A stretch of 64,000 nucleotides of DNA from Escherichia coli (GCF_024223415.1 NZ_CP100500.1); one strand, 5' to 3'. Positions 6,141 to 32,451 are shown, counted from the first letter of the stretch. The notes: generated by a model not told the origin, from the letters alone. Numbers and translations are program-made.

Positions 6141-6700
6141 TTACATTTCAGGTTGCGTTATGACTGTCCCAGCGGGGTGATAGCGGTAGATCGTTGACAG
6201 TCCAATATCATAGATAATTACCAGCCGCTTTCTGTCATACCCTTTCTGGAGCAATCTTGCGATCTGCTCATGCTGCTCCTTCGTCAGTTTCGGGCGACGC
6301 CCTCCAACTCTCCCTTGTGCTCGCGCAGCAGTCAGTCCTGCCAGCGTGCGCTCAACTATCAGTTCACGTTCCATTTCTGCCAGTGCACCCATCATATGAA
6401 AAAAAGAACCTTCCCATCGGAGTGCTGGTATCGATTAAATCCGTCAGACTGCGAAAATTGACACCTTTTGCGCGTAGCTCTTCTGTGAGCGAAATGAGGT
6501 GTTTCATTCTTCTACCCAACCGTTACAGCTTCCAGACCACCAATGTATCCCCTCTTTTAAGGCACCTTAAAGCGCGTTTCAGGCCTGGTCGTTGCGACTT
6601 AGTTCCGCTCATTTGTCCTCAAAAATTTGTTCACATCCTGCGCACATTAATACATTGCGTTTTGGTCATTTGTTGACACACGTATGTAGCCAATCAGCAT
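6141..6700 (-). pseudogene. gin: Gin/Pin-family serine DNA invertase, inactivated
   Basis: Translation gives MLIGYIRVSTNDQN, CAGCEQIFEDK, RPGLKRAL..GDTLVVWKL, HLISL..GRFFF and the C-terminal HTH in different frames; in-frame TAA, a 7-A homopolymer frameshift (6399-6405) and further indels. Confidence 0.8.
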
Positions 6701-6770
6701 CAAAAACACTCCCTTTTGAGTGGTTAAAGTAGTGAGATAATGTGGGGAAGATTTGAGAGATAACCCGCCC

Positions 6771-6803
6771 CCGCAATATCGCATTTAACTATATTGTGAG
6801 GGC
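6771..6803. repeat. 33-bp inverted repeat, copy A
   Basis: CCGCAATATCGCATTTAACTATATTGTGAGGGC; 31 of 33 identical to the reverse complement of 7437-7469. Confidence 0.7.
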
Positions 6804-6815
6804 GCGTGATACCGT

Positions 6816-7430
6816 TCAGCCAGCAAGCGCCAGTGGCGCTTCCGGCCAGCTGATTTCAGGTGCCTTGCTGATATCCAGTGCGTTCAGATCGTCGATATAA
6901 TCCAGCACGGCATTCAGTTTTGCCGTTTCTTCTGGTGTCAGACTGCGACCTGCCCGCAACTTAAGGTTGATGAGGTCGATGGACTTCATCGCCTGATCCA
7001 CCCGTTCCTGGCGTTGCTGTCTGGCAACCTCCAGCTCTTCGGCTTGCTGCCGTTCTGTATCGGTTACCCACGCCTCACCGTTCCAGGTATCCCATGGTGT
7101 GGCAGGCTGTTTTGTCGTTGTCCCTTCCGGGTAGTCACCTGGTTGGGTAATCTGGACCGGATTACCGTTCTCTGTGCTGTATACCGTCTCTCCACGATGA
7201 TCGGGGACATACTCCCACCCGTCCAGCGTGGACGTCCGGCAAATCACGTAACCCGGCATTGCCTCTGGCGGGGCATCGGCGCATGAATGTGCCGGGGTAC
7301 CCACCCCCAGGGCCAGATACTCCACAGAGGATGAGGTGTATTCCCGGGTTTCCTCATCATAGTGATATACAGTGATATCGCCTGCGAAAGTGGCGATACC
7401 GTTTTCATCCAGAACTGCAGTGTTACTCAT
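6816..7430 (-). CDS. tail fibre assembly protein (Mu U-like)
   Basis: 204-aa tail fibre assembly protein sequence; start ATG overlaps the tail-fibre stop (TAATG). Confidence 0.8.
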   Translation of the reverse strand: MSNTAVLDENGIATFAGDITVYHYDEETREYTSSSVEYLALGVGTPAHSCADAPPEAMPGYVICRTSTLDGWEYVPDHRGETVYSTENGNPVQITQPGDYPEGTTTKQPATPWDTWNGEAWVTDTERQQAEELEVARQQRQERVDQAMKSIDLINLKLRAGRSLTPEETAKLNAVLDYIDDLNALDISKAPEISWPEAPLALAG

Positions 7431-26949: not shown

Positions 26950-28265
26950 CAGAATCCCTCCAGCATGCGGGCGGCTTCACGGCGGCGGCGCGAACGCGCC
27001 ACTACCGGCCCTGACGGTCCGTCAGTGGCGTTAATAGCCAGAAAACAGGCCCATGTACGGTCGGCGTGACCTGCTGCATCACTTTCCGCCACAAAGCGAG
27101 GCGCTCCGGTAGGTCCGGTGATCTTACGGAGCTTATGCAGATCACTGCGCAGTACCACATCTCCCGCGGGAATACGCAGGCGGCGGTCCTCAAACATCTC
27201 CCTGCCACGGGTCGCGAGGGTGAGCTTGTTCGGGCTGTTAAATATCACCCCCTCCACACGACTCCTGCCGTGGCGCTCCTGAGCATCTTCCACAGGCTTT
27301 TCCCCCATTCCTGTCTGATCCATACAGCAGCGCAGCACGCGATAACGGAAAAATACGTCATCCAGCAAAGCATCCTGCTCAGCAAAGGTGGCCCGTTTAC
27401 GGGTGATGATTTCCCGGGTCCAGTAGACATCCCCCACCTGTTCAAGCACCCAGATGACAAACAGGTCATTACGAACAGCAATATCCACCCCCACAAAGCA
27501 GGGGCCACCCGTATAGTGCACCGGCAGCCCGGCAGCATCGTGCTCCACGCCGTCAATCAGTTCAAACGTCAGCCAGGCCGATGCCTCATCCAGCCACTTC
27601 AGTTCAAACTCCTGTGCCCAGGCGTCATCATCGTTGAGCGCCTGTCGCATCTGTGCAATATCACGCGGAAGGCCGTCGCGCACGGCACGGTAAATATCCA
27701 CGATGTGACGTGACCAGACATTTTCAAGGGCGTTGCTGGTCATCAGTTCATAAAACTTGTTTCCCTTGCCGTTCGGCGTCGATGTCACACGCAGTCTGTA
27801 GCCGTTGGAAATGACCGGAAACAGAGCGGTCCAGATTTTGCGACTGTCGGCATGGAAGGCGAACTCATCCAGAAAGACGTTAGCCGCAAACCCACGGGCC
27901 GTGTCGGCATTGGCCGGCAGGGCCGTGATACGGGAGCCACCGGGTAACTCCACCTCAAGCATGGTATAGCGTTCGCCACTTTCGGCCCTGTAATAACTCT
28001 CCATTTCACGGGCTGCCATCCGGTAGGCGCTGCAGTGTTTTTTCACCCCCTCCACCATGGCTTCTTTTGCCTGGCGCTCCCCGCGCGAGAGGATCACCCA
28101 GCGTGTACGTCCCCCTGAGGCCTCCGTTTCAAAACAGTCATCAACCAGCTCCAGCGTGGTGGTGAACGTCTTGCCCGTCTGACGGGCAAACATACCAATC
28201 TTGAAACGGGCACGATCCAGAAACCACGACTGCTGATAGGGATACAGCTGAATGGCCGCTGTCAT
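26949..28265 (-). CDS. terminase large subunit
   Basis: 438 aa; Walker A-like ARQTGKT near the N-terminus, nuclease-like C-terminus. Confidence 0.8.
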   Translation of the reverse strand: MTAAIQLYPYQQSWFLDRARFKIGMFARQTGKTFTTTLELVDDCFETEASGGRTRWVILSRGERQAKEAMVEGVKKHCSAYRMAAREMESYYRAESGERYTMLEVELPGGSRITALPANADTARGFAANVFLDEFAFHADSRKIWTALFPVISNGYRLRVTSTPNGKGNKFYELMTSNALENVWSRHIVDIYRAVRDGLPRDIAQMRQALNDDDAWAQEFELKWLDEASAWLTFELIDGVEHDAAGLPVHYTGGPCFVGVDIAVRNDLFVIWVLEQVGDVYWTREIITRKRATFAEQDALLDDVFFRYRVLRCCMDQTGMGEKPVEDAQERHGRSRVEGVIFNSPNKLTLATRGREMFEDRRLRIPAGDVVLRSDLHKLRKITGPTGAPRFVAESDAAGHADRTWACFLAINATDGPSGPVVARSRRRREAARMLEGF

Positions 28266-28816
28266 GAGATCACCCCGTAAATCTGTTCCCGCACCATCTT
28301 CAGGGTTTCCAGACTCAGGCGGGTGTCGCCGGACTTCGCCTGTTTTTCCAGAGCATTCATCCGTGCCTCAATTTTTGCCAGCACCTCGGCCCGGAATCGC
28401 TTGTGGGTCACCGAAGCACGGACAAGAGTGGCTATGCTTTCCGAAGCAGTGGCCAGCAGTTTTGCGCGTTTTGCAGGATCATCACTTTCTCCGATTTCCT
28501 GCAGACGCATCAGAACATCCAGCATCTCGGTCTGAATCAATGCCATCATCCCGGCAGAACGATCGTCCGCCTCGTCACCGGCTTCCTGCGCCATCAGACG
28601 CGCGGCCTCGGTGGCGGCGCGGATGCGGGCCAGTTGTCGCTCCATTTTGTACCCGAACCGCTGCAGGGAGGAACGGGTGATGACGTATCCCTTCTCCTTC
28701 AGCAGGGCTTCCAGCCGGGCGTAGCCGCTGAAGTTATTCTCCGTCAGGGCTCGCTCCAGCCAGCGGCTCACCTCTGTCGGGAGGGTATCAATGCTGCTGC
28801 GACGTCCCATAATCAC
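28262..28816 (-). CDS. Mu gp27-like protein (terminase small subunit candidate)
   Basis: 184 aa; overlaps the large terminase start. Confidence 0.65.
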   Translation of the reverse strand: MIMGRRSSIDTLPTEVSRWLERALTENNFSGYARLEALLKEKGYVITRSSLQRFGYKMERQLARIRAATEAARLMAQEAGDEADDRSAGMMALIQTEMLDVLMRLQEIGESDDPAKRAKLLATASESIATLVRASVTHKRFRAEVLAKIEARMNALEKQAKSGDTRLSLETLKMVREQIYGVIS

Positions 28817-29124
28817 TCACTCCAGTACTTTTCCGGGCGGGCAATACCCGGGCCGCATTCCACGGTGTATTCCACAATATCCACACCAAGGCGACTCAGA
28901 TCGGCAAACCAGTCACCGGAAGGTCTCTTCTCCAGCTCCACCATTTTGCGATCTGCCAGATAATCAAGCTCCCGGCGCAGCTCCAGTTGCGTGGTGTCCG
29001 GGTAGATGGCGCGGGACACTTCCAGCAGCAACGTCTCGCTGGCGGTGTAAGGGCGGGTTTTGTTAAGGGCAACCAGCAGACTCCAGCGCAGGGATTCACG
29101 GCGTACCCGGGTAATATCGACCAT
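28813..29124 (-). CDS. hypothetical phage protein
   Basis: 103-aa ORF in the operon, overlapping stop/start codons. Confidence 0.5.
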   Translation of the reverse strand: MVDITRVRRESLRWSLLVALNKTRPYTASETLLLEVSRAIYPDTTQLELRRELDYLADRKMVELEKRPSGDWFADLSRLGVDIVEYTVECGPGIARPEKYWSE

Positions 29125-29450
29125 TATTGACCTCCGGTATTGCGGTACTGCTGTACCACTTCCAGTTTGTTGTAAAGCGCGTCCAGTTTGGCCTCGATGA
29201 CTGTCTGGCCACGGATATAATCCTCGCGACGGACATAATTCAGCGGTAAATCCGCTTTAAATCGCATCAATTCTTTTTCCAGCTCGCCCCAACTGGAGGC
29301 GGACTGCTGCAGTGACTGCTCAAGAGAGGCAAAACGTGCAGCCTGACGTTCCTCCGCTTTACTGAACAGCCATTTGGCCATACCGCCAACAAAGCTCATG
29401 AAGGTGATGAGAAAGCCCACCACCGTCCAGAATTCAACCTGCAGTGTCAT
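29124..29450 (-). CDS. membrane protein with N-terminal TM helix (Mu gp25-like)
   Basis: 108 aa; hydrophobic N-terminus then charged coiled-coil. Confidence 0.55.
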   Translation of the reverse strand: MTLQVEFWTVVGFLITFMSFVGGMAKWLFSKAEERQAARFASLEQSLQQSASSWGELEKELMRFKADLPLNYVRREDYIRGQTVIEAKLDALYNKLEVVQQYRNTGGQ

Positions 29451-30100
29451 TTATGTAATCCTTCCCGTTCATCCAGCAACGCGTTTATCTGGTTCCGCCA
29501 GCGACGACATTGTCCTGCGTTGTCGATGATGTTGGCGAGAACGTCACGCTGGGAGACACCCGAATCGCGTAACCGGGTATCAGCGGTTTCAGGTTGCCCG
29601 GTCGCTGCGCCAGTGCCGGTGCCAGCGGTGGCAGTTGCGTCTGAATGACCGGTGTCGACGGATGCGTTGTCATATCCGAGTGCGGCGTTGTACTGGCGCA
29701 CGAAACCGCGAGTAAACACGCACTCAATGGGATGGCTCTTACCTTTTTCATCAATCCAGCGCTGTGTGACATCGTTAATTTGCCCCTGTAGTTGTTTGTT
29801 CCGGCTCTCCAGTTGAGCAATCTGCTCAAGGTAACTGGCTTCAGCCCGTTGCCCGGCGGCTACCTGCTCCTGATACCGTTTTGCCCATGCTCGCAATGCA
29901 GCGTTCTCAAGCATTGCCTGCTCCGTTTTGTATGTGTCGAATGCTGACTGCAACTCACTGATCGCCTTATCGCCGTTGCGCGTGGCGTTTTCATGCCCGC
30001 TTTTGTAGCCCAGGTAATAAAGTCCAATCAGAAAAGCATTTATGAGCACTGCCAGCAGCAGACTGCGCCACGGCAGATTTTTTAGCAGGTTAGTCCACAC
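29447..30100 (-). CDS. inner-membrane spanin candidate (Rz-like)
   Basis: N-terminal TM helix, long coiled-coil, sits after the endolysin; contains an embedded lipoprotein ORF. Confidence 0.6.
   Translation of the reverse strand: MWTNLLKNLPWRSLLLAVLINAFLIGLYYLGYKSGHENATRNGDKAISELQSAFDTYKTEQAMLENAALRAWAKRYQEQVAAGQRAEASYLEQIAQLESRNKQLQGQINDVTQRWIDEKGKSHPIECVFTRGFVRQYNAALGYDNASVDTGHSDATATAGTGTGAATGQPETADTRLRDSGVSQRDVLANIIDNAGQCRRWRNQINALLDEREGLHK
29485..29751 (-). CDS. outer-membrane spanin candidate (Rz1-like lipoprotein), embedded in the Rz-like gene
   Basis: MKKVRAIPLSACLLAVSC lipobox-type signal then proline-rich sequence, in the +1 frame inside 29447-30100. Confidence 0.5.
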   Translation of the reverse strand: MKKVRAIPLSACLLAVSCASTTPHSDMTTHPSTPVIQTQLPPLAPALAQRPGNLKPLIPGYAIRVSPSVTFSPTSSTTQDNVVAGGTR

Positions 30101-30824
30101 AGCTGCCGCCCCCCCATGTCAGATAACGGGGGGCCAGTTCGTGCAGGATGCGCTGCGGATAATGACGGTTCTCCCGCCAGCTGGCAGCATTGCGTCCGGC
30201 ATTCACCGTGGCGACATGTCCGAACCAGCGCTGACTGTCCAGCCCCAGATTTGCGGCGAGCCGCTGGTCACGACGCACCCAGCCCGGGCCACCGTTATAG
30301 CCCGACAGTGTCATGGCCATACGCTCGCAGTCACTGGCGGCGCTGATGCGCTGCCACAGCCAGCGGTCATAGCTGACCAGCGCCCGGATGGCCCATGCCG
30401 GATTAAACGGCTCACGACTGCTCAGCGCCGGCATCAACTGGCTTATCCAGTCAGCGGTGGCGGGCATAAACTGCGCCAGCCCCTGAGCGCCCACCGGCGA
30501 GACCGCATCAGGCCGCCAGCCGCTTTCCTGATGCAGTTGCGCGGCGAAATCGGCCACCGGCGCAGACAGCCCCCATTCAAGCCGGGCATTACGGATCACA
30601 TCATCGCGATACTGCAGCGCAGCCTGCGGAGGCTGCGCTGCGCGGGCCTGACTGAAGAAGCCGCCACACCAGAGCAACATTGCGACAAAGAATACCCATG
30701 CCATATGAACCAGAAAGGTCCCGACACGGACTGACAGGCGTTCGGTTCTGATGAAGACCAGAAAGGCTTCGAAAGCCAGTTTCAGGGACATGCATACAAT
30801 CCAGGTGCTCTGTGGCCAGTTCAT
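30090..30824 (-). CDS. endolysin, lytic transglycosylase type, with N-terminal membrane anchor/SAR-like segment
   Basis: SLT-like catalytic region (..EWGLSA..QLHQESGW..); hydrophobic N-terminus; true start may be ATG 30704. Confidence 0.75.
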   Translation of the reverse strand: MNWPQSTWIVCMSLKLAFEAFLVFIRTERLSVRVGTFLVHMAWVFFVAMLLWCGGFFSQARAAQPPQAALQYRDDVIRNARLEWGLSAPVADFAAQLHQESGWRPDAVSPVGAQGLAQFMPATADWISQLMPALSSREPFNPAWAIRALVSYDRWLWQRISAASDCERMAMTLSGYNGGPGWVRRDQRLAANLGLDSQRWFGHVATVNAGRNAASWRENRHYPQRILHELAPRYLTWGGGSCVD

Positions 30825-30826
30825 GA

Positions 30827-31177
30827 TTAAAGCCCCATCGCAACAGCCAGACAGACAGCTGCAACAATCAGTGCACGGCGGATTAACGCAGCAGAAAAAA
30901 CCAGGTGAAGGCCGGTCTGTACGGGCCAGCGCCCCTCAGCCATGAGGCGCTCGTCATGCTTCAGGTACTGCCCCGGACGGGCCTTCGGGAAGAGTGAGCG
31001 GTCCAGCCAGTAGCCGAGCACGGCGGCGAGGGAGATGAGAGAGAGCTTGTACACCACCACCGGCAACTGCTGGGGCGAGACCAGCGCGATGATGAGGAGT
31101 AGCAGCACGGCCGCAACAAGCCATCCACGCAGGCGGGTTTTTTGTACGTCAGCGATAAGGGAAGTGAATGGTTTCAT
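30827..31177 (-). CDS. holin-like membrane protein, first gene of the leftward late operon
   Basis: 116 aa with 2-3 predicted TM helices directly upstream of the endolysin. Confidence 0.55.
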   Translation of the reverse strand: MKPFTSLIADVQKTRLRGWLVAAVLLLLIIALVSPQQLPVVVYKLSLISLAAVLGYWLDRSLFPKARPGQYLKHDERLMAEGRWPVQTGLHLVFSAALIRRALIVAAVCLAVAMGL

Positions 31178-31308
31178 GAAAATGTCTCCTTGTTGTGTGG
31201 AGACAGCATGGCAAAAGCGTGGCGCGGAGGATTTTAAAGCGCGTTAAGAGAGAGGCGTGTTCGGGGTATGCAGAATACACGCTGGATCACTCACAAAGGA
31301 GATACAGA

Positions 31309-31857
31309 ATGACAGTCACACCGAAGCCGACCATCACCGTCAGAGTGTCCGGGCCTGTGGGCAGCGGTAAAAGTTACGTTCTGACGCGTATAAAAGAGAT
31401 GGTGAAAAAGGAATTTGGAAAAAGCGTCATTGTCGATGCCGCAGTTGTGGACGACGAGCGTATCTGTCGGACGAATGAGCTGCTTCAGGAGCAACTCATG
31501 AAGGTGTTACGCAAACTCACCGGTCAGACAACAAAATGTTTTTCAGCCCCGGAGTACGGGATACAGGAACACATCCCGGTGAACATGCCCCCCGTTAACC
31601 AGCCTCCCCGGTTCTTCGACGAATACATTCTGACACCGGAAAATAAAGCTGAGCATGAAGAGATCAAAGCGGCGTTGTTCCGGGAAATCAGGAAGATTGC
31701 TGAAATGCAGCTGGAGGGCGGGCTGGACAGAGTGATGGCGAGAGGAGAATGGGAATCGCTGTTTGAAAGAGTTTCCCCGGAATTGCTTCCCCTCGCACTG
31801 GCTATCGGGATTATGCAGACAGCGGATAAACCTCACTTACGTTCATTAAACACGTAA
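31309..31857 (+). CDS. small P-loop NTPase/kinase-like protein, unknown function
   Basis: Walker A GPVGSGKS at residues 14-21, hhhhDD-type VIVDAAVVDDE; AAGGAG RBS 7 nt before ATG; opposite strand to the flanking late genes. Confidence 0.6.
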   Translation: MTVTPKPTITVRVSGPVGSGKSYVLTRIKEMVKKEFGKSVIVDAAVVDDERICRTNELLQEQLMKVLRKLTGQTTKCFSAPEYGIQEHIPVNMPPVNQPPRFFDEYILTPENKAEHEEIKAALFREIRKIAEMQLEGGLDRVMARGEWESLFERVSPELLPLALAIGIMQTADKPHLRSLNT

Positions 31858-32237
31858 CGCATAATCCGGGATACGCATTCAGCGATGACTGCATTTTCAC
31901 CGGTTTTTACTGCATCCAGAAGTGACTCTTTAAATGGTACGGGCCGGGGCTGCAGAAAGGTCGGCATGGCATTGAGCAGACAGAGCGTTTTTTCCGTGAG
32001 GACGACATCAGCCGCTCCCACAGCCAGCAACTGAGAGTAACGAATATAGCTGTTATCCCGAAGCCATATCAGCGTATCAATAAAATACCGGCACTTTTTC
32101 TGATCGTGATCAACCTGGTCCGGGATATCGAAAAAACCAGAATAAATCAAAACCTGAGGAGCCGGATGCGTGTTCAGTAATCGGCAGAATATTTTGCCGG
32201 TGAGTACATAAAAATCATCATTTAAGGAGTGCATCAT
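31833..32237 (-). CDS. hypothetical protein (134 aa)
   Basis: ORF convergent with the P-loop gene (25-nt 3' overlap) and divergent from the next gene; weak RBS; coding status uncertain. Confidence 0.4.
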   Translation of the reverse strand: MMHSLNDDFYVLTGKIFCRLLNTHPAPQVLIYSGFFDIPDQVDHDQKKCRYFIDTLIWLRDNSYIRYSQLLAVGAADVVLTEKTLCLLNAMPTFLQPRPVPFKESLLDAVKTGENAVIAECVSRIMRYVFNERK

Positions 32238-32451
32238 GAATCCCCGATTAACGTTAACAGAACATCAGCGCCGTGCCGAAGCAGTGAACAATGTTCTGGA
32301 AGATATTATCCGGTTACATCGCGGAGAACTGAGTGTCTGTCGTGCCACTGTTCATTTTCAGGAAATACAAAAGCAGTTTGATACTTCTGTTTTTGCAGAA
32401 GGGATCACTTATGCCCTGGACCAGATAAGGTCAGAAAATCGCCCCGGATAA
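32236..32451 (+). CDS. small hypothetical protein (71 aa)
   Basis: AAGGAG RBS 6 nt upstream of ATG; start overlaps the start of the divergent ORF by 2 nt. Confidence 0.5.
   Translation: MNPRLTLTEHQRRAEAVNNVLEDIIRLHRGELSVCRATVHFQEIQKQFDTSVFAEGITYALDQIRSENRPG

Follow-up and report, generated by a model that had tools for sequence, protein, structure and literature searches.

A likely lysis cassette in a BcepMu-like transposable prophage of Escherichia coli, with a predicted two-helix membrane module in its transglycosylase endolysin

The 64,000-nucleotide stretch of Escherichia coli DNA analysed here (GCF_024223415.1, NZ_CP100500.1; hereafter the window) carries on its minus strand, at positions 29124-31177, a compact group of five genes. 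It very likely is the lysis cassette of a transposable E. coli prophage of the BcepMu-like (Bcepmuvirus) type, at the 5' end of its late/packaging operon. In the order of transcription, these genes encode a holin, an SLT-family lytic transglycosylase endolysin, an Rz-type inner-membrane spanin (i-spanin), an Rz1-type outer-membrane spanin (o-spanin) embedded in the Rz gene and a gp25-like membrane protein. As judged from its sequence, the endolysin would be best described as a small two-transmembrane lysis-cassette protein fused to an exported SLT enzyme. What the analysis establishes directly is the gene content with its homologies, selection on both overlapping spanin frames, a catalytic motif and an endolysin N-terminus of modular origin.

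An open reading frame (ORF) scan revealed that the five genes are tightly packed or overlapping. From 5' to 3', the holin stop and the endolysin ATG lie 2 nt apart (TAATCATG), the endolysin and Rz genes overlap by 11 nt, Rz and the fifth gene share an ATGA, and the fifth gene is joined by a TAATG to a gp26-like gene. This packing indicates that the genes form one translationally coupled operon. The holin start is preceded by the Shine-Dalgarno sequence AAGGAG, and a GGGGGG constitutes a plausible Shine-Dalgarno sequence for Rz. Upstream of the holin there is a gap of 131 bp and then a divergent gene, and a late operon that starts with the holin is plausible.

The first gene was described in an earlier note, made from the sequence alone, as coding for a small multi-transmembrane holin-like protein, and profile searches agree with that description. 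The product matches the Pfam family Holin_2-3 (PF13272; E 1.7e-41, 141.2 bits for a cutoff of 27) and phrog_1528, annotated 'holin' (8.7e-51), and its hydropathy profile has three peaks at residues 16-34, 40-58 and 92-116, corresponding to two or three hydrophobic segments. The gene is also labelled 'putative holin' in RefSeq.

The second gene product was confirmed as an SLT-type endolysin with a hydrophobic N-terminus, as first proposed. It matches PF01464 (SLT; E 4e-15, 55.8 bits, cutoff 21.3), and its best PHROG is phrog_669, 'endolysin' (1.5e-67), followed by weaker matches to phrog_342 and phrog_2013. Residues 72-242 are 62.6% identical to BcepMu gp22. In a phmmer alignment, Glu100-Ser101 align with Glu478-Ser479 of the E. 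coli transglycosylase Slt70 (1qsa), and the GLAQ and YNGG motifs are present; Glu100 is the predicted catalytic acid. This sequence alignment was used instead of a fold search, for which the AlphaFold model of the endolysin was too poor (predicted local distance difference test score, pLDDT, 62). Across an alignment of 37 homologues, Glu100-Ser101, GLAQFMP, YNGG and the pair Cys166/Cys242 are all invariant, and the cysteine pair suggests a disulfide in an exported, periplasmic enzyme.

The N-terminal part of the endolysin contains two hydropathy peaks, at residues 7-25 and 34-57, with the basic loop RTERLSVR between them. The low-confidence model likewise places helices at residues 3-27 and 30-53, its lowest pLDDT values falling at residues 60-64. 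Here and below, statements on topology, lipoboxes and cleavage derive from hydropathy scales and pattern rules, together with comparisons among relatives. According to the positive-inside rule, the hairpin would have its N-terminus out and its loop in, so that the catalytic domain is out. Directly after helix 2 the sequence reads S-Q-A-R-A followed by A-Q-P-P. An [A/S/V]-x-[A/S] motif followed by A-[Q/E]-P-P is found in 118 of the 120 best homologues, the -2 position being free (N, R, H, D, S, C, Q, A or Y); the 37-homologue alignment shows an invariant A63 and conservation of at least 90% for A62. This is the pattern of conservation that signal peptidase I imposes, known as the (-3,-1) rule, and the simplest reading of the A-x-A motif with the following alanine is a site for this peptidase. 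The earlier note had named a cleavable signal peptide as the finding that would speak against its own reading. Such a signal is nearly what emerges, in that the motif obeys the rule in these 118 homologues.

Relatives of the enzyme carry other export signals at the same place. A plain Sec signal peptide is found in homologue P0105 (MARRIHYNGSGSGWLFLLLILLLTGAFGSNA, followed by AQPP) and in BcepMu gp22 (MRVLIAFVVALLGAAAPVAA, followed by QVP). Homologues P0105-P0119 have such short classical signal peptides, and that of P0106 (MTMRWTQITLIVLLWCSGFLTQAHA, followed by AQP) resembles an internally deleted hairpin. In other relatives a lipobox takes this position: LLSGC in P0120 (LLCLLSGC) and LLSAC in the enzyme of Pseudomonas phage JBD25 (MKRLLTLGLLGLLSAC; JBD25 598-1227). 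Because of this lipobox, the JBD25-type and P0120 enzymes are predicted lipoprotein endolysins. The common denominator of the family thus appears to be export of the catalytic domain, with a predicted processing site about 9-10 residues before a conserved YR motif. We also considered an internal start at Met41, which would give the window enzyme a plain signal peptide of 22 residues; it was rejected as a general solution, since this Met is missing from the common allele and conservation extends to the ATG that directly follows the holin stop.

The origin of the hairpin can be followed in Pseudomonas phages. In JBD25, a gene for a 52-residue protein (MGAPQIIWIVLAAVVLVTSYACDGLTNVISFKQRVFDVIAMTALVWWGGFFG) lies between the holin and SLT genes and overlaps the SLT start, and its product has a WPQI...WxGGFF layout in common with the enterobacterial endolysin N-termini. 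This protein is phrog_5479, a family of 53 positions with no assigned function. The common enterobacterial allele, which we call KP12-type after the 'Klebsiella phage KP12' clone, matches phrog_5479 from end to end (4.6e-15), and the window allele matches it over residues 42-58 only (E 0.001). As a free-standing gene, phrog_5479 occurs in 48 Pseudomonas phage records (JBD25 and 47 others), always beside an SLT endolysin, and annotators of some records have labelled it 'holin' or 'lysis protein'. The hairpin is fused to the enzyme in phage B3 (ORF25), as in the window, and in 87 of 115 full-length enterobacterial homologues; it is absent from BcepMu and from a Pectobacterium prophage. It is this shared family with a free-standing gene that makes a two-transmembrane protein fused to an exported enzyme a better description than 'membrane-anchored endolysin'. 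At the DNA level, the hairpin (window 30675-30810) exists as two sharply different alleles, one of the window and Escherichia phage PhiKM and the other of the KP12 type, between identical flanks, which indicates cassette-like exchange within the endolysin gene. The possibility that the window allele is a frameshifted KP12-type allele was rejected, as the DNA is simply different from about nucleotide 16 to about nucleotide 150 of the gene. A literature search of incomplete coverage found no published description of such a hairpin-endolysin fusion.

It is possible, though we do not favour it, that the protein is a true signal-anchor-release (SAR) endolysin, a type that the earlier note had also suggested. 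Helix 2 or the whole hairpin would then be an uncleaved anchor that leaves the bilayer when the holin depolarises it, possibly with the gp25-like protein as releasin. As in P1 Lyz and R21 of phage 21, a hydrophobic N-terminal segment would export the muralytic domain without need of holin holes. The hydrophobicity of helix 2 is marginal in the majority of alleles, with a median summed Hessa-scale value of about +2.8 over 19 residues, and the helix contains a Gly-Gly and a frequently conserved cysteine (WCGGFF) that recalls the SAR cysteine of P1 Lyz. Moreover, the position of the releasin gene is filled by a gene for a membrane-tethered cytoplasmic protein, and the SLT endolysins of Pseudomonas Mu-like siphophages, the JBD25-type enzyme included, have been classed as SAR and paired with DUF2730 releasins (PMC9239132).

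The remaining observations do not support a SAR mechanism in the window. The P1 Lyz and R21 domains are single, weakly hydrophobic, uncleaved transmembrane domains (TMDs) rich in Gly, Ala, Ser and Thr, whereas the window enzyme has two helices, of which helix 2 is strongly hydrophobic and aromatic (LIVFMW fraction 0.71-0.80). The Gly/Ala/Ser/Thr fraction of this helix is 0.13-0.21, against 0.5-0.67 for the corresponding SAR segments in P1 Lyz, R21 and Mu gp22, the Mu sequence being taken from its record. The outcome of this comparison is allele-dependent, because helix 2 of the other alleles is less hydrophobic. Furthermore, the (-3,-1) motif is conserved while position -2 is free, the paralogous N-termini are ordinary signal peptides or lipoboxes, and the gp25-like protein is not detectably a DUF2730 protein.

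Permanent anchoring of the enzyme by the hairpin, as in the membrane-bound lytic transglycosylases of the host, seems unlikely. Murein would then be cut from the membrane surface after the action of the holin, and A-x-A would merely mark the start of the catalytic domain. The two helices of the window allele are clearly hydrophobic, a long hydrophobic stretch can block signal peptidase, and the lipobox relatives P0120 and JBD25 would also yield a tethered enzyme. However, the short classical signal peptides of many relatives, BcepMu gp22 among them, would give a soluble enzyme, and the variability at positions -3, -2 and -1 matches the pattern of signal peptidase I. Cleavage after the hairpin remains our preferred reading.

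Finally, we regard it as very improbable that the SLT protein is a virion-associated transglycosylase, or a host-type one carried as a moron. SLT domains also occur in tail or internal virion proteins, as the weaker matches to phrog_342 and phrog_2013 illustrate. Against this, the gene lies between holin and Rz/Rz1, abutting the holin stop and overlapping the Rz start, its best PHROG is an endolysin family, the annotation of the prophage lists no second muralytic gene, and BcepMu and B3 have the same arrangement.

The third gene encodes the Rz-like protein with a transmembrane segment and coiled coil that was expected from the first description. It matches phrog_1403, 'Rz-like spanin', over its full length (3e-88), and by synteny and PHROG it is homologous to BcepMu gp23, 'Rz'. 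A single TMD at residues 13-31 (hydropathy) is followed by a helical periplasmic domain, with weak matches to coiled-coil families over residues 29-136. Two periplasmic cysteines, Cys127 and Cys198, agree with the disulfide rule of the curated spanin survey, in which 507 of 528 systems have a periplasmic cysteine in either subunit (PMC6139136). In the PhiKM and KP12 records, Rz itself is labelled 'putative lipoprotein'.

The lipoprotein ORF with LAVSC and a proline-rich body that had been noticed in another frame of Rz is indeed an Rz1. It begins at Rz offset 349 nt, in the +1 frame, and stops 38 nt short of the Rz stop; its functional start is probably one of the two ATG codons given in Table 1. 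The signal (MKKVRAIPLSACLLAVSC, followed by ASTTP) consists of a basic n-region, a hydrophobic core and an A-V-S-C lipobox at 29698-29709, a box that falls in the range accepted for lipoboxes. With its cysteine at 18 and a Lys or Arg within the first 7 residues, LAVSC presumably fits the prokaryotic lipoprotein pattern PROSITE PS51257. The +2 residue is Ala and not Asp, and is therefore not an inner-membrane retention signal. The mature protein has 71 residues, of which 15% are Pro and 27% Ser or Thr, contains no cysteine besides the lipidated one, and aligns both with the ORF embedded in B3 Rz and with BcepMu gp24, with which it has PLIPGYA in common. The curated survey by Kongari et al. (PMC6139136) lists BcepMu and phiE255 as a group of two-component spanins with embedded architecture. 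RefSeq leaves Rz1 unannotated in the identical E. coli prophage.

Conservation and codon-position diversity provide evidence for this embedded gene. Signal and lipobox are kept in all 57 related IMG/VR loci with a full-length Rz, at 68-95% Rz identity. Among 39 distinct Rz genes, the diversity at codon positions 1, 2 and 3 of the Rz frame is 0.165, 0.113 and 0.297 upstream of the overlap and 0.116, 0.046 and 0.101 inside it, a threefold fall at the third position. Over the first half of mature Rz1, variability is highest at Rz position 1, which is the wobble position of Rz1 (0.163 versus 0.058 and 0.058), and the signal-lipobox stretch is nearly invariant at all three positions. This pattern shows that the overlapping Rz and Rz1 frames are both under purifying selection. 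The embedded ORF also exceeds chance expectation: when synonymous codons of Rz are resampled, a conservative null, a lipobox ORF of at least 70 residues is obtained in only 62 of 5000 trials. That the ORF is instead a chance frame in Rz, the outer-membrane step being absent or done otherwise, is extremely improbable in the face of this selection, of the invariant lipobox, of the homology to the BcepMu and B3 proteins and of the listing of BcepMu, even though RefSeq omits the gene, the Rz +1 frame of certain relatives stays open well beyond the limits of Rz1, over as many as 184 codons, and a lipobox ORF survives in 1-4% of the resamples.

The fifth gene, which is separate from Rz, lies within the region covered by the earlier note but is missing from its description. 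The product matches phrog_462 (6.6e-35), is 43.9% identical to BcepMu gp25 and is a homologue of B3 ORF28. Hydropathy places a TMD at residues 7-25, preceded by an acidic Glu6 and followed by Lys/Arg, and these charges predict an N-out/C-in topology with long cytoplasmic helices. In an AlphaFold2 model of high confidence (pLDDT 91.7), a helix at residues 7-71 is followed, after a kink at the conserved LP..YVRREDY motif, by a second helix at residues 75-104. The family comprises at least 624 representative clusters at E <= 1e-3 and extends to Mu-like phages of Firmicutes (FP_Mushu, BalMu-1), where its strongly conserved C-terminal motif LP..YVRREDYIRGQ.VIEAKLD occurs as well. A 'lipoprotein' label is attached to this family in phrog_462 and in several RefSeq phage records (the BcepMu gp25 and B3 ORF28 family); it is unfounded, because the window protein lacks both a lipobox and any cysteine.

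The position of this gene is that of Mu gp25, the 'releasin' needed to release the SAR endolysin gp22 (Chamblee et al., PMC9239132): it is the second gene downstream of the endolysin and stands directly ahead of gp26 and gp27. Mu gp25 and JBD25 AFR52234 match DUF2730 (PF10805) with E-values of 2.5e-13 and 4.6e-9, respectively. However, the window protein, BcepMu gp25 and B3 ORF28 did not match PF10805 even at E <= 10, nor did any of 73 members of the gp25-like family. BLASTP detected no similarity of the gp25-like protein to Mu gp25 or to the JBD25 DUF2730 protein, and hhalign against Mu gp25 gave a probability of only 27% over 41 columns, covering the TMD and the start of the helix; the two proteins also belong to different PHROGs (462 and 736). 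On these grounds we do not claim homology to DUF2730. A Foldseek search of the model against BFVD returned no matches, a two-helix protein being uninformative in such a search. In closely related B3-like phages, members of either family can occupy the slot, phrog_462 in B3 (ORF28) and DUF2730 in JBD25 (AFR52234), the latter listed as paired with an SLT endolysin in Table S1 of Chamblee et al. (PMC9239132). The same slot and the same architecture make the two families positional and architectural equivalents, and by analogy we infer that they may also be equivalent in function.

Comparison with known systems places the cassette among those of an already described kind. A holin, an SLT endolysin and an embedded Rz/Rz1 pair were reportedly described in BcepMu in 2004. 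The gene order is identical to that of BcepMu from the holin to the terminase subunits TerS and TerL, and the holins belong to the same Pfam family. The BcepMu record (AY539836) gives gp21 as holin, gp22 as 'putative soluble lytic murein transglycosylase', gp23 as Rz, gp24 as 'Rz1, out of frame, embedded proline-rich protein' and gp25 as 'putative inner membrane protein', followed by gp26, gp27 (TerS) and gp28 (TerL). This identical order, together with the curated spanin listing, is what assigns the cassette to that kind. It differs from BcepMu in its host, E. coli and not Burkholderia, in a TerL of another type, and in the endolysin itself: gp22 has 203 residues and a single short signal-like N-terminus, whereas the window enzyme has 244 residues and the two-helix module.

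Similarly, the Pseudomonas B3-like phages (B3, JBD25 and Fc02 among others; Beetrevirus) have a Holin_2-3 holin, an SLT endolysin with a catalytic domain about 61% identical, an Rz with embedded Rz1 and, next to these, a TM and coiled-coil protein followed by gp26 and gp27. Unlike the window, they contain an extra small gene between endolysin and Rz, and in JBD25-type phages the hairpin is a separate gene, the endolysin has a lipobox signal of its own and DUF2730 fills the fifth slot. In Mu, the order of endolysin, spanins (gp23/gp23.1), small membrane-tethered cytoplasmic protein, gp26 and gp27 (TerS) is the same, gp26 and gp27 are homologous, and gp25 has the same size, N-terminal TMD and predicted topology as the window protein. 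However, Mu lacks a holin, its endolysin gp22 is a muramidase of the glycoside hydrolase 24 type whose SAR domain is canonical and rich in Gly and Ala (PMC9239132), and its gp25 is DUF2730/phrog_736. With the S-R-Rz/Rz1 genes of lambda, the cassette shares the three-step scheme of a holin, a lytic transglycosylase and a two-component spanin with Rz1 lying wholly in the Rz +1 frame (PMC6139136), but the window enzyme carries its own export module, and the two systems use holins and spanins from families with no sequence relationship.

The lambda transglycosylase R is a cytoplasmic enzyme that depends on large holin holes. For the prophage of the window, the picture with the best support is again lysis of a Gram-negative host in three canonical steps, and we infer the following course as regards topology, cleavage, timing and the part of the fifth gene. 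The holin, by its family membership, would build up in the inner membrane and permeabilise or depolarise it at a set time. The SLT enzyme would not wait in the cytoplasm: the two-helix module, with its short N-terminal tail out and its basic loop in, would place the catalytic domain in the periplasm via Sec/YidC. The transglycosylase is probably clipped between A62 and A63, so that a soluble enzyme would be set free in the periplasm while a hairpin of about 62 residues stays behind in the membrane, or is possibly tethered until the membrane is de-energised; if cleaved constitutively, it might be kept inactive until then. Rz in the inner membrane and the Rz1 lipoprotein in the outer membrane would span the periplasm and fuse both membranes once the murein is cut. 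The fifth protein would probably modulate endolysin release or lysis timing, which is the weakest step of this proposal. A bolder combination of these elements appears doubtful to us. According to it, a phrog_5479 hairpin has replaced the signal core of the endolysin, signal peptidase yields both a soluble transglycosylase and a hairpin of about 62 residues that acts on timing as a holin partner or antiholin, and phrog_462 would be a second, sequence-unrelated releasin-like class alternating with DUF2730.

Several points weigh against the proposed reading of the cassette and its mechanism. The signal peptidase cleavage is deduced from the motif alone, and the hydrophobic stretch preceding the A-x-A motif is long (about 20-24 residues), which can make a signal uncleavable and turn it into a signal anchor. 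AlphaFold modelled the endolysin with low confidence, and the part given to the fifth gene is drawn solely from position and architecture. The start of the operon at the holin is left undemonstrated by a promoter scan that found no sigma-70-like site upstream of this gene, such a scan being uninformative for an activator-dependent late promoter. A literature search, again of incomplete coverage, found no experimental paper on the Holin_2-3 family, nor any experiment on the prophage of the window. Lastly, the authors from the Young laboratory put related Pseudomonas SLT endolysins in the SAR class (PMC9239132).

The element that hosts the cassette is a Mu-like transposable prophage at approximately 5383-43557 of the window (about 5.4-43.6 kb), with genes for a DDE transposase, a MuB-like ATPase, Gam, gp16/GemA, Mor, a portal protein (DUF935) and a P2/Mu-type contractile tail. 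The window is 100% identical to the prophage and chromosome of E. coli NRZ14408, and the cassette is found at an identity of at least 80% in 636 of 5426 complete E. coli genomes (about 12%). Among isolated phages, those that come closest are the KP12 clone, at 91% identity, and Escherichia phage PhiKM, a Bcepmuvirus by classification, at 89%. Downstream of the cassette, the gp26-like protein (phrog_436, 3.2e-40) anchors the synteny with Mu, whose gp26 belongs to the same PHROG (7.3e-43), and is followed by the terminase genes. TerL of the window is only 24% identical to the 507-residue TerL of KP12, whereas the neighbouring lysis genes are about 90% identical; it is a mosaic replacement of the packaging enzyme. 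On the other side, the interval between the holin and a dam methylase gene (31178-32451) contains three small genes on alternating strands, at 31309-31857 (plus), 31833-32237 (minus) and 32236-32451 (plus), which differ from the gp19/gp20 region of BcepMu and resemble moron insertions. Elsewhere in the prophage, an invertase-type recombinase (6355-6926) is annotated as frameshifted. The prophage is flanked on one side by prfC and a dinI-like gene; the other flank (43900-64000) holds what is left of another prophage, of lambdoid type, and among these remnants are an Ail/Lom family protein, a tail fibre and an immunoglobulin-binding protein that is truncated.

Table 1. Positions of the cassette genes, their sub-features and the adjoining genes in the window
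Feature	Position	Strand	Basis and remarks
Holin, 116 aa, BcepMu gp21 homologue	30827..31177	-	PF13272, phrog_1528, hydropathy
SLT-family lytic transglycosylase endolysin precursor, 244 aa	30090..30824	-	PF01464, phrog_669; BcepMu gp22 homologue from residue 72 on
Two-helix membrane module, codons 1-59 (MNWPQ-TM1-basic loop RTERLSVR-TM2-WCGGFFSQ)	30648..30824	-	Hydropathy; relation to phrog_5479
A60-R61-A62, putative signal peptidase I motif	30639..30647	-	Homologue conservation; predicted cut between A62 and A63
Codon of predicted catalytic Glu100 (motif HQES)	30525..30527	-	phmmer alignment with Slt70
Rz-type i-spanin, 217 aa, GTG start	29447..30100	-	phrog_1403, hydropathy; overlaps endolysin 3' end
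Rz1-type o-spanin, embedded in Rz +1 frame	29485..29772	-	ORF 29829..29485; 95 aa from ATG 29772, 88 aa from ATG 29751
gp25-like protein, 108 aa	29124..29450	-	phrog_462; start overlaps Rz stop
gp26-like protein, 103 aa	28813..29124	-	phrog_436; synteny with Mu
Mu gp27-type small terminase (TerS), context gene	28262..28816	-	PF11985 Phage_Mu_Gp27, 1.3e-43
Large terminase (TerL), 438 aa	26949-28265	-	Next after TerS

As first described, the cassette amounts to a routine annotation of an arrangement that was already known, and some novelty lies only in the modular N-terminus of the endolysin and in the alternative occupant of the releasin slot. The practical value of the analysis concerns an Rz1 that is missing from RefSeq, relatives whose Rz or gp25-like protein is mislabelled 'lipoprotein', and the frequency of the cassette among complete E. 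coli genomes. In Mu-like phages, the releasin slot is filled by at least two families that have the same architecture and no detectable sequence similarity. Within a single endolysin family, the export device appears to be modular and takes the form of an ordinary signal peptide, of a lipobox, of a signal accompanied by a separate hairpin gene, or of a fused hairpin. This series constitutes a natural set in which the control of exported endolysins could be studied.

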